From Minisyncoccota bacterium (lineage in GTDB: Bacteria; Patescibacteriota; Minisyncoccia; Phycocordibacterales; UBA9973), in NCBI GenBank assembly GCA_041648595.1, contig JBAZOQ010000002.1, positions 10,446-74,445 of the forward strand: a stretch of 64,000 nucleotides of DNA. The letters are read 5' to 3'. A program made the translations under genes and the position numbers. The notes beneath the pieces are model-generated. The model ran no database searches. It was not told where the DNA came from and saw only the letters and a list, made by a program, of their open reading frames with translations. This document shows positions 3,750 to 30,807 of the stretch, in pieces (position 1 is the stretch's first letter; every line of letters begins with the position of its first letter).

Positions 3750-4964
3750 TTAATCAAAGTAATTTTTAAGGCGAGCTATTTTTTCATGCTGACGAAGTTT
3801 TTCGTGAACTTTTGCCTCAATCTGACGAATACGTTCACGCGTCACTCCAAACTCTTCCCCTACTCTCTCTAAGGTGTGCTGTATACCATCAACAAGACCA
3901 TAACGCATTTCAAGAATTTTACATTCTTTTGGATTAAGTTCATTCAAAACTTCACGAATCTGGTCAGATAAAATTCTTCTAGAAGATTCTTGGTCCGGAC
4001 GTAAAATTTTATCATCAGGAATAAAATTTTCAAGAGTTGATTTATCATCATCATCTCCTACTGGTTGTTCAAGAGAAATAGTTTCTTGACTAATATTTTC
4101 AATCACATGAATTTTTTCAATAGGAATACCCATTTCTGTAGCGATCTCTTCTGCTAATGGTTCACGTCCTAGGTCTTGACTGAGTCTTCTATAAACTTGT
4201 TTATATTTTGAAATAGTTTCTACCATATGCACTGGAATACGAATAGTTCTACTTTGATCAGCAAGCGCTCGAGTAATAGATTGACGAATCCACCAAGTTG
4301 CATAAGTTGAAAATTTATATCCTTTAGTCCAATCAAATTTTTCAACAGCTTTAAATAACCCCAGATTTCCCTCTTGAATTAAATCTAAAAGACTTAAATT
4401 AGCGCTTCTTCCTACATATTTTTTAGCAATAGAAACCACAAGGCGTAAATTTGCTCGTGCTAATAAATTTTTTGCTTCTTCGTCACCTAATTCTATACGT
4501 TTAGCAAGATCCTTTTCATCACCAGCACGAATAAGTGAATACTGTCCTATTTCTTTTAAATACATTTGAATAGAATCATGTATTGTAGATTTATTTAAAT
4601 CTTTATCAGAAATATCATTATCAAGATTCAGTAAATTTCCACCCTCTAGTACATCTATCCCAGCAACTGAAAATTTTTCATAAAGTTCATCCAAAAAGAA
4701 AATATTGTTTTCAATATCAGGAAAAGTTTTTAATATTTCGTCATAAGTAACAAATCCTCTCTTGCGTCCTTTTTCTATAAGATCACTCGAAACCTTTGCA
4801 AACCCTTCAGCCCTTTTTTCTGCTGCAGTTGTTTTTTTTGTAACCTTTTTTCCTATTTTTTTTATTTTTTTAGTAATTTTTACTTTTTTTATCTTTTTTA
4901 CAATCTTTCTAAGAGGTTTTTTACTAAACTTTTTTATTTTTTTATTTTTTATTTTTTTCTTCAT
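3750..4964 (-). CDS. rpoD: RNA polymerase sigma-70 factor RpoD
   Basis: The product carries [39 protein letters not shown] (regions 2-4) and has a Lys-rich N-terminus. The start is set to the ATG of MKKKIKNKK; the ORF track extends to 5009 through the repeat element. Confidence 0.9.
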
Positions 4965-26943: not shown

Positions 26944-27905
26944 TTATAACTTTTTACTACTCAATATTTCAATCGCGCGAGTTATAAGTGGAATAATATC
27001 ATTATAAATACGAAGTTCTGGAATTTCAGAGAGTTTAAACCAACGAGCATTATCTAATCCACCAGAATCTTCAAGTTTTAATTCACAATATTTACTTTCT
27101 GCTAAAAAATACGTAACTTTTTTTAATGTCTTCCCTTTTTCTGGATGAGAAGCTACATATTCATTTTCACCAAGTTTTTCTTTTATAATAATATCAAGTC
27201 CAATTTCTTCCTTTATTTTTCTTATTGTGCCATCTTCTACGCTTTCATTCTCAATTTCTGGATTATCTCCTACTTTACCTTTTGACAAAGTCCAATAACC
27301 AAAAACATCATGCACTAATGCAAATAAAGTATCTTTATTCCCGCCAGAGGAACGGGCAGGCTTTTGAGCATAAATCAATGCTCCACCCAACTTTTCAACT
27401 GGTAATTTTGTAATATCTACTGGCTCATCGTTTTTTTTCTTTTTACTTATTTGTTCTTTTCCAGGTTCACCAATCTCTTTATAAACTGCACCAAGAACAC
27501 CATTAACAAATTTACTAGAATTTTCTCCACCAAAAGTTTTCGCTAATTCTATAGCTTCATTTATGGCAACCTTAGGAGGTACTTGATTCCTATCACCAAA
27601 AAGAAGTTCAGTCAACCCAATTCTTAAAATATTTCTATCAACAATAGATATCTTATCAAGTGGCCAATCCGGTGCAGCTTTTTTTATTATCTCATCAACT
27701 ACTGTAACTTTTCTTAAAATTTCTTCTACTAATGTAGCCACAAAAACATCATCCTCAAGGCCAGGAGCAAATTCTTTTAAATTTCTGTTTAAAGCTTCTT
27801 TTGTTTTTTCGTCAGTCCAAACATTATTCTGTCCTCCAGTAGTCATAAAATCCCACTCAAAAAGCGTTTGGAGAACTATTGATCTTGAAAGGTGCCTATT
27901 TGCCA
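26944..27905 (-). CDS. nusB: NusB-like antitermination domain fused to a C-terminal Nudix-hydrolase-like domain
   Basis: N-terminal ~150 aa are NusB-like. The C-terminus has [15 protein letters not shown]...RKIKEEIGL, resembling the Nudix box. The start is taken at the ATG of MANRHL. Confidence 0.6.
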
Positions 27906-27920
27906 TAAAAATTACCAATT

Positions 27921-28207: not shown

Positions 28208-28288
28208 AATGTATTCTATACTAGCATATTAAAGATGAAAAGCAAAATTATACATTTAAGTAAACAAACTATTACACTGAAATACAAC

Positions 28289-28324
28289 TGTCTACTATCT
28301 TTTCATATGTAAAGATAGTAGACA
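28289..28324. repeat. Palindrome TGTCTACTATCTTT-TCATATGT-AAAGATAGTAGACA overlapping the RT stop codon
   Basis: 14-bp perfect stem. Related copy at 61944-61979. Confidence 0.7.
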
Positions 28325-29341
28325 CTAATACAATAGTGTTTAAGAACACCCATATAAGAAGCCATAATTTGTTGAAATTTATCTTTATTTATTTTCCCAA
28401 TAGCTAATTCTTTTCGTGCTTTTTTAAGTTTTTTAAAAATTCTTTTCTTGGTTCTCGTTCTTAATACAATTATGTTAGGTAAAATAACATAACCCACAAA
28501 ATCTATTCCTCGACTTAATTTTCTTATATAAACTTTATCTGGATGTAATTCAAGTTTTAAGTTTTGTTTTAAAAAAATTTCTATTTCTTTTTTGTATAAT
28601 GTAAGCAAATTTTCACTTTCAAAAATTAAGACAAAATCATCAGCATATCTAAAATAATGTTTAATTTTAAGTTTATGTTTTATAAATTGATCCAATTCAT
28701 TTAAATAAATATTTGCAAAAAGTTGGCTAGTTACATTACCCAAAGGAAGTCCAACATTTGGAAACTTCTCAAAACTTTTTAAAATTTTATTAATTAACCA
28801 TAATGTATCTTCGTCTGAAATCTTTTTTTTAATAAGCTCAAATAATATAATATGGTCTATATTTTCAAAAAATTTTCTAATATCACACTTTAAAACAAAA
28901 ACTGGCTGTTTCCAATTTTTACTTTCTTTACGTAAAGCTACAAAAAGTTTTTTTGATGCTTTGTGTGTCCCTTTTTTAAGTCGTGAAGAATATGAATGAA
29001 ATATAAAATGTTTATCAAAAATTTGATATAAAACTCTAAAAACTGCTTGATTTAACACTCTATCTCTAACCACCGCTTTATGTATATGTCTGCGTTTTGG
29101 ATCATACACAAAAAATGCTTGATACTTTGTAGGTTTATAAATTTTACTTATTAGTTCCTTATGTAAAGAAAATAAATTATTTTCTAAATTAAACTCAAAA
29201 TCTGCAACATCTATTTTTTTAGTTTTGCACTTTTTAAATTCCTTCCAAGCTTGAAGTAAATTTGATAAACTTACTACATTATGGAAAAAACTTTGAACAG
29301 CCCCCCCCCCCGACGCAATTTTTGATGTCCTTGTCGTTCAT
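28303..29341 (-). CDS. Diversity-generating retroelement reverse transcriptase (Brt-like); reading frame interrupted at a C11 homopolymer (29301-29311)
   Basis: LPLGNVTSQLFANIYL matches the DGR-RT hallmark (I/L)GxxxSQ motif 4. FRYADDFVLIF is the YADD active site. FFVYDPKRRHIHKAVVRDRVLNQAV and SYSSRLKKGTHKA align block by block with Bordetella Brt. The frame is open upstream of the annotated GTG back to 29337, but the ATG (MNDKDIKNCVGGG) is in another frame. Fusion needs C10 rather than C11. Confidence 0.85.
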
Positions 29342-29344
29342 AAG

Positions 29345-29674
29345 ATGAGAAAATTATATATCTATGTGTATATGATTGGCAACAAGTTACCAAAACGAGA
29401 TAAATTGGGAATTCATAGTTATATTGAAAAAGAATTTTTACAAACTTTTTCAACTTTAATAAACGCTTCACTTGAGCCAAAATCAGAAAAAATAACCTCA
29501 GTCAAAAAAGCGAGACTTCAAATAGAGACATTAAAACAATTATTCAGAACAGAATATGAAACAAAGATTATTACAGAAAAAGTATATTTAAATATAGAAT
29601 TAAAATTGCAAGAAATTTCTAAAATGACAAATGGTTGGTTAAAATATTTACAAACACAAAATCCGCCCAATTAA
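29345..29674 (+). CDS. Avd-like accessory variability determinant (four-helix-bundle protein, TIGR02436-like)
   Basis: 109 aa, basic. LPKRDKLGIHSYIEKEFLQTFSTLINASLE and C-terminal ISKMTNGWLKYL resemble the FPK-E-G...NIAEG and ML-GLIKSL blocks of bAvd-family proteins. Divergent from the RT. Confidence 0.55.
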   Translation: MRKLYIYVYMIGNKLPKRDKLGIHSYIEKEFLQTFSTLINASLEPKSEKITSVKKARLQIETLKQLFRTEYETKIITEKVYLNIELKLQEISKMTNGWLKYLQTQNPPN

Positions 29675-29694
29675 AATTGAAAGCGGATTTAAGT

Positions 29695-29817
29695 GAGAAA
29701 CTTCTGAACGGATACCATAACTAGAGTTCGAATTGTCCAGATTGTACCAATTCACATTGAACTTGTCGTTGTTCCAATTCGCGTTCGGAACATTACCATC
29801 CGAATTGCGAGAACCGT
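29695..29817 (-). other. DGR template repeat (TR)
   Basis: 123 bp aligned to VR at 30077-30198 with 15 core mismatches. Every one is a T in the plus strand of TR, i.e. an A in the minus coding sense. Non-A differences occur only at the IMH-like end (CTTC vs TTGC). Confidence 0.85.
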
Positions 29818-30017
29818 CCTATTACAAAAAATCATCCATTCCACCGACAAATCAATTACTTAATTTTCTGTGTTATCTCACAGTCGTGAGCAATATGTAG
29901 CATCATTACAAAATTGTATTATCTATGCTCAATTTTTTGCAAGCAGTTTCTTAATATGGCAAACTGTTATCTTAGTTTTAAGATCAGTTTATCAGCCAAA
30001 TATATTTTAACATAAAA

Positions 30018-30052
30018 AAATTGCGTTAGGTTTTTTAAAAACCTAACGCAAT
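30018..30052 (-). terminator. Perfect 15-bp hairpin TTGCGTTAGGTTTTT-TA-AAAAACCTAACGCAA downstream of the DGR target gene; terminator and/or DGR homing hairpin
   Basis: Followed by TTTTTTTATG in the minus-strand sense. Lies about 25 bp beyond the IMH end of VR. Confidence 0.6.
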
Positions 30053-30072
30053 AAAGATAAAAAGAAAAAAGA

Positions 30073-30807
30073 TTAAAGAGAAATTGCTGAACGGATACCA
30101 GAACTAGAGTTCGAACCGTCCAGATAGTACCAACTCACAAGGAACCCGACGCTGTCCCAATACGCGTTCGGAACATAACCATCCGAATAGCGAGAACCGG
30201 AACAGAAAGTAACACCTTTGATATCTAAATGATTTCCCGTTTCCGAGAAATACTTGATTTCAAGAATGATACGTTCCAAAACAGTGATTCCAATTTTCAT
30301 ATCAGCGTCAGCCTGCCTTGTTGATTTACCGAGATATTCAATGTCAGGTTCAATATCATCACGAACCCAAACAGCGTAATTGTCCGAAGACGTCCGTATA
30401 TTTGTTGGAATTGTCTTGTCTAAATCATCACTATAACGCCATGATTTAAAAATAGCTTTACAACAATCAAAGGCTTTGTTCATCGTCATACCTTTTGCGA
30501 TAAACAATAGACGCCAATTACCGTCAGGACGATTAGGAATGATAACTCTGCTGAAATCTACATCCCAATTGAAATGAGTTTTGTAAAATTTCTGCCATTC
30601 TTCACGAATATTGGCATACTCATCTACAATTGAGAAAACTTCTCGAAGCTTTTTTTTCAGCTCATTTTTGTGTCCGAGCCAATAATCAATTTGCACCTCA
30701 CTAAGTAATGTCGTTAAAAAGTCAACGATAAAACCAGCGAGAGAGCCAATTTTTTGCATTATTCCGCTAATGCTGAGCGTTTCAGATTTTGTCCCATGTT
30801 TTTTCAT
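30073..30807 (-). CDS. DGR target (variable) protein with a C-terminal C-type-lectin/FGE-like VR region; no signal peptide
   Basis: The C-terminal 40 aa (GVTFCSGSRYSDGYVPNAYWDSVGFLVSWYYLDGSNSSSGIRS) are encoded by VR. Adenine-containing TR codons map onto these positions. Confidence 0.8.
   Translation of the reverse strand: MKKHGTKSETLSISGIMQKIGSLAGFIVDFLTTLLSEVQIDYWLGHKNELKKKLREVFSIVDEYANIREEWQKFYKTHFNWDVDFSRVIIPNRPDGNWRLLFIAKGMTMNKAFDCCKAIFKSWRYSDDLDKTIPTNIRTSSDNYAVWVRDDIEPDIEYLGKSTRQADADMKIGITVLERIILEIKYFSETGNHLDIKGVTFCSGSRYSDGYVPNAYWDSVGFLVSWYYLDGSNSSSGIRSAISL
30077..30198 (-). other. DGR variable repeat (VR) at the 3' end of the target gene
   Basis: See the TR entry. It ends 2-5 nt before the target stop codon. 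Confidence 0.85.

Follow-up and report, generated by a model that had tools for sequence, protein, structure and literature searches.

A poly(C:G) tract in the antisense overlap of avd and reverse transcriptase genes as a candidate contingency repeat of diversity-generating retroelements in Patescibacteria

Background

Bacteria of the candidate phyla radiation (CPR) are, to our knowledge, the richest known reservoir of diversity-generating retroelements (DGRs), which encode a reverse transcriptase (RT) and pair a template repeat (TR) with a variable repeat (VR) at the 3′ end of a target gene. Little is known of how these elements are restrained in their activity, so that a useful variant persists and mutagenesis does not become too costly. 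Here we analyze a DGR of a Minisyncoccota bacterium (Patescibacteriota; assembly GCA_041648595.1), located in a 64,000-nt stretch of contig JBAZOQ010000002.1 (positions 10,446 to 74,445 of the forward strand) which is referred to as the window. Its avd and RT genes lie on opposite strands and overlap at a poly(C:G) tract of 11 bp. From sequence comparisons we consider it probable that this tract is a contingency repeat, i.e., a phase-variation type of simple sequence repeat (SSR), which would co-gate Avd and RT, the element of the window being either OFF or leaky.

In Bordetella, Avd is needed together with the RT for cDNA synthesis, as stated in an excerpt of PMC6182149. The gene order of target and TR, inverted avd, and RT, termed the 'B3' architecture, makes up 90% of the CPR set according to excerpts of Wu et al. 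2018 (PMC5758913). Frameshifted DGR RTs are mentioned by Schillinger et al., in the excerpted part of that work, solely as inactivated elements. In the literature considered, which included excerpts of the DGR surveys PMC5758913, PMC3521204 and PMC8144416 and did not extend to Paul et al. 2017 (Nat Microbiol), the principal paper on CPR DGRs, no homopolymer, SSR or phase-variable avd or RT gene was found.

Results and discussion

One homopolymer separates two start codons from their genes

Positions 29301–29311 of the window read C11 on the plus strand, forming Pro codons of avd, and G11 on the minus strand, forming Gly codons of the RT gene. The initial annotation had described an RT frame that is broken at this run, and this was confirmed: at C11, the only ATG of the RT gene (29341–29339) and the RT body frame are offset by one base. 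The leader frame starting at this ATG (29279–29341, minus strand) encodes MNDKDIKNCVGGGGCSKFFP* and stops after 20 codons, with the tract beginning at codon 11; the ATG thus lies in another frame than the RT, as had been noted. The body frame (28303–29337, minus strand), bounded by TGA 29340–29338 and by the stop codon 28305–28303, reads ..SKIASGGGAVQSFFHNVVSLSNLLQAWKEF.. and stays open over its whole length. It is therefore open, as also proposed earlier, upstream of GTG 29109, its first canonical start codon and the start of the annotated RT product P0008 (268 aa). Between the TGA and this GTG, neither ATG, GTG nor TTG was found in frame, only the near-cognate codons ACG and ATT, and an alternative in-frame non-ATG start of a full-length RT was rejected for this reason. 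When the tract was rebuilt at lengths of 8 to 14, removal of one C restored an RT of 345 aa, C13 yielded 346 aa, and all other lengths gave a peptide of about 20 aa. The earlier description, which named C10, is thus correct; C13 restores the frame as well.

The RT contains a Pfam RVT_1 domain (E = 7.8e-21) with the sequence LPLGNVTSQLF, which includes the GNVTSQ motif and conforms to the DGR-type pattern [IL]GxxxSQ; the SQ dipeptide is described as a marker of the DGR RT clade in an excerpt of PMC3521204. NCBIfam RT matches were all under their cut-offs, a DGR-specific RT hidden Markov model not being among the profiles used. The leader in front of the tract follows the pattern M-N-[ND]-[RK]-x-[IV].., which is kept in relatives.

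The avd gene is interrupted in the same way. In this respect the earlier description, which dealt with the RT, was incomplete, as it was with regard to the presence of the tract throughout the family and to a 3′ deletion in this copy of the RT gene. On the plus strand, the tract is read as PPP within the avd frame. ATG 29281 opens a frame (29281–29325) beginning with MEKTLNSPPP, in which the tract starts at codon 8; with C11 the product is no more than MEKTLNSPPPRRNF*, with C10 an Avd of 130 aa results, and the Avd body is reached only at C10 or C13. The body frame (29297–29674, plus strand) reads TAPPPDAIFDVLVVHKM RKLY.. and contains an internal ATG at 29345, the start of an annotated 109-aa product without the native N-terminus. 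An Avd protein made from ATG 29345 would miss approximately 21 N-terminal residues, about 5 of which are within the Avd profile. The product is assigned to the Avd family by Pfam bAvd (43.6 bits, cut-off 40) and by NCBIfam DivGenRetAVD (E = 2e-14, under its 80-bit cut-off), and both alignments begin 4–5 residues upstream of Met 29345.

Comparison with homologues indicates where avd begins. In relatives, PPP of the Avd frame directly precedes the conserved motif [IV]P[LI][VI]HK..LY, and in 16 loci the first >20 avd codons past the tract do not include a start codon. Many Avd homologues in the databases have the form M-x(1-8)-PPP-..., and homologues in the ON state with a full Avd start are represented by L089 and P0122. 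Close relatives that lack the tract have equally long Avd N-termini (P0139, MKKITTIASKNFNIPVIHNLRKLY, 132 aa; P0147; P0154). The gene map of the P0139 contig places avd at a distance of 3 nt from an RT gene of 335 codons whose product starts with MVSLSNLL, the two genes being back to back without overlap. The equal N-termini encoded by these non-overlapping genes imply a native avd start on the far side of the tract, and the comparison shows ATG 29281 to be this start, as far as start codons can be predicted from sequence.

The 5′ ends of avd and the RT gene form an antisense overlap of about 60 nt, codon for codon, so that GGG in RT is PPP in Avd. Each start codon pairs with a His codon of the other gene: the RT ATG is complementary to that of the 'VHK' motif in Avd (29339–29341), and the avd ATG at 29281 to that of the 'FHN' motif in the RT; in non-overlapping relatives, the His of 'VHK' is replaced by Phe and that of 'FHN' by Lys or Asn. 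The annotated avd ATG 29345 and the RT ATG 29341 stand back to back (CAT AAG ATG). Because the open reading frames (ORFs) are codon-aligned in antisense on both sides of the tract, RT and Avd are in frame at equal tract length. The upstream RT and Avd ATGs belong to the same frame class in 39 of 41 loci; with this proportion and the structural complementarity of ATG and CAT, the idea that the co-phasing at C10 is a 1-in-3 coincidence was rejected. Since the Avd N-termini of non-overlapping relatives match, the RT leader of 21 residues (MNDKDIKNCVGGGAVQSFFHN) is read as an extension that was overprinted on the avd N-terminus and is restricted to tract-bearing loci. A codon-aligned antisense overlap, with start codons complementary to His codons of the partner gene, is an unusual gene architecture.

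The tract is locus-specific and conserved in related retroelements

In DNA as rich in A and T as the window (30.3% G+C), a G/C run of 11 nt is exceptional, as the initial annotation had pointed out; no other run of G or C in the 64 kb exceeds 6 nt. Matches to a C8 pattern were confined to 29301–29311, and dinucleotide shuffles gave a mean of 0.24 matches and never equalled the observed count. In the window, GGG makes up 9.5% of the Gly codons, and CCC makes up 7.2% of the Pro codons. A contig from an independent assembly (L081, sample 3300028028), which differs from the window by one mismatch over 4366 nt, has G11 too. Moreover, none of the 34 A/T runs of at least 8 nt (8–10 nt) in the window breaks an ORF. 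Both observations make a simple consensus error unlikely, and, on the evidence of these sequences, it is highly improbable that the tract is a mutation private to this genome or was created by assembly.

Related loci were collected in a scan of one genome per species, which gave 80 loci, all from metagenome-assembled genomes (MAGs) of CPR/Patescibacteria, with RT identities of 46–79%; 73 were usable. The comparison with related genomes that the initial annotation had proposed revealed G7–14 at the homologous site in 46 of the 73 loci. The poly-G lengths were 10 (21 loci), 9 (18), 8 (4), 11 (4), 7 (1) and 14 (1). Another 12 loci have (GT)7-13, (GA)12 or (TGTCC)8 at this site, and 15 have no repeat there. 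In the RT tree, poly-G forms one deep clade of about 40 loci, and the (GT)n, the (GA)n/G and the repeat-free loci form three further clades. In the (GT)n clade, the repeat is located in the avd ORF only, where it is read as (HT)n; the RT ATG lies downstream of the repeat, and the ORFs overlap by 9 nt (ATGATTCAT). Within 600 kb of related loci, 47 of 51 G/C runs of at least 8 nt were found at the avd/RT junction, as were 11 of 13 dinucleotide repeats of at least 7 units. Runs that stay pure over 46–79% amino acid identity and that consist of the rare codons GGG and CCC imply selection on the DNA repeat rather than on Gly or Pro codons.

Three loci without a junction repeat contain an in-frame repeat within the RT gene, at one shared position just before GLPxGNxxSQ, namely (AG)10 read as RERERE (L042, 4542–4561), (AG)8 (L071, 4523–4538), and G9 read as GGG (L073, 4544–4552). 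Convergence of different repeats (G, GT, GA, TGTCC, AG), all of them frame-shifting, on two positions argues for mutability as the selected property. Ten viral DGR loci from IMG/VR (RT identity 34–42%, TR directly upstream of the RT gene) had no repeat upstream; the tract is missing from these and from one CPR clade, and was therefore rejected as a universal DGR feature. Two individual loci show further peculiarities. In L075, at about 3950–3985 in RT orientation, (GA)12 is directly followed by G9, so that two repeats are fused at the avd/RT junction. The RT gene of L073 has an in-frame stop about 58 codons past the anchor, within the conserved FxIxDPK motif; the gene may be a pseudogene, or the lineage may have recoded this stop codon.

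Tract length differs between close strains

A tract pattern search among metagenome contigs showed that the near family of the window spans G8 to G12 and includes all three frame classes: L094 has G9, L089 has G10, the window, L081 and L084 have G11, and L082 has G12. In 12 distinct strains of this family, in-frame, +1 and −1 classes occur in a ratio of 1:6:5. Both ORFs are complete in L089 (G10), with an RT of 355 aa (P0001) and an Avd of 130 aa. When all poly-G loci are sorted by the frame of their upstream ATGs, RT and Avd are both in frame in 8 and both out of frame in 26; in 7 only the RT is in frame, by way of a second ATG located in a different frame, and in 1 only Avd. Of 49 poly-G loci, 45 have an intact RT body past the tract (306–367 aa), and nearly all of the out-of-frame loci are among them, which argues against old pseudogenes.

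The repeat thus has a unit that is not a multiple of 3 and lies near the 5′ ends of its ORFs; it is conserved, pure and locus-specific, and its length differs between close strains, as is characteristic of SSR contingency loci. Of the three explanations offered in the initial annotation, the slipped-strand ON/OFF switch is favoured by the conserved position of the tract, by lengths of G9–G12 in close relatives, and by the other frame-shifting repeats at the same site.

The retroelement has been active recently in the species

The tract is part of a DGR with the 'B3' gene order, avd being located on the plus strand between TR and the RT gene. The TR (29695–29816, minus strand) and the VR (30078–30199) at the 3′ end of the target gene (30073–30807, minus strand, 244 aa) are 86% identical, and 16 of the 17 differences in the 122-nt core are at TR adenines (A-to-N). 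A DGR-type RT, Avd, an adenine-specific TR/VR pair at the target 3′ end and signs of recent mutagenic retrohoming are therefore all present. The target protein had no matches in Pfam and NCBIfam.

Between L089 and the window, the TR shows no difference (133 of 133 nt), and the target genes upstream of the VR differ at 2 of 602 nt (99.7% identity). The VRs carry 20 differences, 19 of them at TR adenines. Identical TRs together with adenine-specific VR differences indicate retrohoming since the two cassettes diverged. As read from these alignments, the comparison shows recent DGR activity for the species, with G10 in the one strain and G11 in the other, and not necessarily for the window's own lineage.

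Identity between the window and L089 is mosaic. It amounts to 99.6–99.7% over target, TR and avd (29312–30807), to 93% over the RT body (28303–29300), and to about 81% over the genes downstream of the RT gene. This step in identity falls at the tract or close to it, which points to part of the cassette having been recombined or transferred. The lone non-adenine TR/VR difference (TR G, VR A) is situated near the 3′ ends of the repeats (29690–29700 and 30073–30083, minus strand), as in a pair of initiation of mutagenic homing sites (IMH/IMH*). A perfect inverted repeat of 16 bp with a 1-nt loop is present at 30020–30052, about 20 nt downstream of the target stop and the VR; it may be a DGR target-recognition hairpin/cruciform, or a terminator.

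A mutable tract as a probable switch of the retroelement

The proposed mechanism builds on the anatomy of the element, the conservation of the tract, its length polymorphism between strains, the co-phasing and downstream integrity of the ORFs, and the recent activity in the species. Slipped-strand mispairing in replication would alter the tract length, and one length class (10 or 13 in the window) would frame both proteins, while the other lengths would truncate both. Since both essential DGR proteins are translated through the tract, the element would flip between a competent and a silent state. ON cells would diversify the target protein, and OFF cells would retain the current variant; that such switching occurs within populations, with the resulting changes at the protein level, we infer. 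With 11 bp, one base over, the window would be OFF in its consensus, or at most leaky, through occasional frameshifting and an Avd that starts at ATG 29345 and so lacks its N-terminus. In a wider sense, we lean towards the view that frame-shifting repeats were repeatedly acquired in the DGR enzyme genes of CPR bacteria as devices of stochastic, heritable ON/OFF control of hypermutation, that most populations are OFF in their consensus, and that in one design a bidirectional homopolymer co-gates both genes.

Several observations weigh against this interpretation. Consensus length is stable within a strain, as the strain of L003 has G9 on six identical contigs, and window and L081 share G11. The canonical ON state was found in only about 10 of 52 loci, the (GT)n clade included (binomial P = 0.019 versus one third, uncorrected for phylogeny). 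The poly-G loci are distributed over the frame classes as 8/25/8, i.e., 25 of 41 are one base too long (chi-square p ~9e-4, likewise uncorrected for phylogeny), and this excess could reflect a preferred OFF state or routine expression by recoding. Poly-G tracts of 8–9 nt tend to expand, as is known from Campylobacter; the excess may arise from expansion together with OFF being favoured, or else from a +1 class that is expressed through recoding. In some relatives, additional start codons of the other frames precede the tract by 17 nt (ATG) and 7 nt (TTG), so their RT may be translatable at more than one tract length.

The window copy itself also carries a lesion. Its RT gene lacks about 60 nt at the 3′ end that were found in all relatives compared (L089, L084, L094, L001 and L003), and its RT ends in YCISVYYLYI* where the relatives all have the tail C[KR]SN.IK[RK].I (28303–28345, minus strand). 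The loss of this conserved C-terminal tail is compatible with decay, and the window copy may be reversibly off or at the onset of decay.

Alternative explanations

If the excess of tracts that are one base too long were the normal state, low amounts of RT and Avd could be made by programmed recoding, either through +1 frameshifting on GGG-G/CCC-C or through slippage of RNA polymerase. This would agree with the 25 of 41 poly-G loci whose ORFs on both strands would be restored by loss of exactly 1 nt, to which a +1 shift is equivalent, with ORF bodies that remain intact, and with an ATG frame that, in the one-too-long loci, reads (GGG)3 and then TAA or TAG within 0–2 codons. CCC-C and GGG-G are classical +1 slippery sites from the work on the suppressors sufA/B and sufD, frameshifting on CCC-C increases without m1G37 or EF-P, and Pro-Pro-Pro stalls ribosomes. 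However, the direction of the required shift is not conserved in the close family, with its ratio of 1:6:5, and ON-state loci are found in many branches. The nearby stop does not have to act as a stimulator, since conserved RT codons (NTT-AAN) give rise to it. Neither (GT)n nor (GA)n nor pentanucleotide repeats at the same site are known ribosomal slip sites, and RNA polymerase slippage has been described mainly for A/T runs, which counts against slippage on a G/C run. Given the spread of classes in the window's family and the non-homopolymer repeats, recoding is the less likely general mechanism, and we regard it as rather unlikely to account for the tract.

Two further explanations concern the window itself. 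The element could be a young pseudogene, whatever the tract does elsewhere, if a hypermutable tract took a +1 insertion that was not reverted. The initial annotation had considered a recent inactivating mutation; this does not hold for the tract as such, which is family-wide and not private, and the RT 3′ deletion, as a second lesion, leaves room for decay of this copy. In the same direction point the 10 nonsynonymous and 6 synonymous changes on the window branch versus 8 and 10 on the L089 branch, a difference that is not significant with counts as small as these, and the missing second ATG, in frame B, that some relatives have (L001, L003 and L090; the window reads GAC ATC in place of GAT GTC). 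Conversely, the 325-codon RT body and the avd body are free of stops, the RT tail may be dispensable, and one slippage event would restore both ORFs. TR/VR differences located almost all at adenines imply that no drift has occurred since the last retrohoming. Decay of the window copy thus appears improbable, somewhat more so than recoding.

The third option of the initial annotation, a homopolymer sequencing or assembly error in a genome with C10 and two intact genes, is very improbable. Long G/C homopolymers are error-prone on several platforms, the relatives from MFD MAGs, with record names in 'contig_', are probably long-read assemblies, and the commonest state among MAGs is one base over. 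But beyond the G11 of the independent L081 contig and the undisturbed A/T runs of the window, the six contigs of another strain (L003) agree on their tract length, and out-of-frame lengths come from many projects, whether assembled with SPAdes, MEGAHIT or an IDBA-type program. In addition, polymerase slippage in vitro mostly shortens runs and seldom lengthens them.

If the contingency-repeat interpretation is correct, these DGRs would have a built-in bet-hedging control, in which one hypermutable device governs another. It would also account for many DGR RTs in metagenomes that are annotated as truncated or frameshifted, such calls representing switch states and not dead elements. The idea is testable in existing metagenomic reads by relating tract-length spectra to VR diversity.

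Further features of the region

On the minus strand, a sigma-70-like promoter was predicted at 29353–29382 (TTGCCA-18 nt-TATAAT, 11 of 12 matches), which would put the start of the RT mRNA about 4–6 nt ahead of ATG 29341. A -10-like box at equal distance is kept in 39 loci, yet the same bases encode the Avd motif 'LYK'. The promoter scan detected none for avd on the plus strand. A role of the tract as a spacer in an avd promoter (TTGAAC-17 nt-CAATTT, noticed by eye) was rejected as the main mechanism, because avd is translated through the tract in homologues.

A palindrome with arms of 33 nt is centred on the RT stop (28274–28339; TCTACTATCTTTACATATGAAAAGATAGTAGA...). Similar palindromes are found in L089 and L084 and are absent from L094, L082, L001, L003 and L091; they may represent either a terminator or a small hairpin element that was inserted. 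Elsewhere in the window, an ORF of 324 aa (26944–27918, minus strand) has a counterpart in L081 with Pfam matches to both NusB and NUDIX, an unusual fusion.

Comparison with known systems

With respect to the repeat, the closest parallels are the poly-G/C contingency loci of Campylobacter, Neisseria and Haemophilus, which likewise have a G/C homopolymer of about 8–12 nt a few codons past the start, vary in length between strains, lose the frame at two of three lengths, and keep the repeat pure against codon usage. Those loci control surface structures or restriction-modification enzymes, whereas the repeat described here would gate an intracellular mutagenesis machine. It furthermore lies in an antisense overlap, where one repeat serves two genes on opposite strands, and it belongs to uncultured CPR/Patescibacteria hosts. 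The fimbrial switch hifA/hifB of Haemophilus influenzae, reportedly described by van Ham et al. in 1993, is said to depend on (TA)n in overlapping divergent promoters. It resembles the present locus in that a single simple repeat between divergent genes controls both; however, it works on promoter spacing and hence on transcription, while the tract in the window is within both coding sequences and would act on the reading frame.

As a retroelement, the locus agrees with the DGR of BPP-1 (mtd-avd-TR-brt) and with the CPR 'B3' DGRs in its SQ-motif RT, the Avd four-helix protein, the adenine specificity of TR/VR and the position of the VR at the target 3′ end. For BPP-1, in contrast, repeat-based control of avd or RT is not known to have been described. 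SSR phase variation and DGRs are both known; what appears to be new is their combination, together with the antisense, bidirectional design and how broadly it occurs in CPR bacteria. Phasevarions, with their phase-variable DNA methyltransferases, offer an analogy at the level of strategy, since there, too, a simple repeat randomly switches an enzyme that affects many phenotypes, resulting in two-tier bet-hedging. Their outcome is reversible epigenetic regulation, whereas switching of the retroelement described here would lead to permanent sequence diversification of one target gene.

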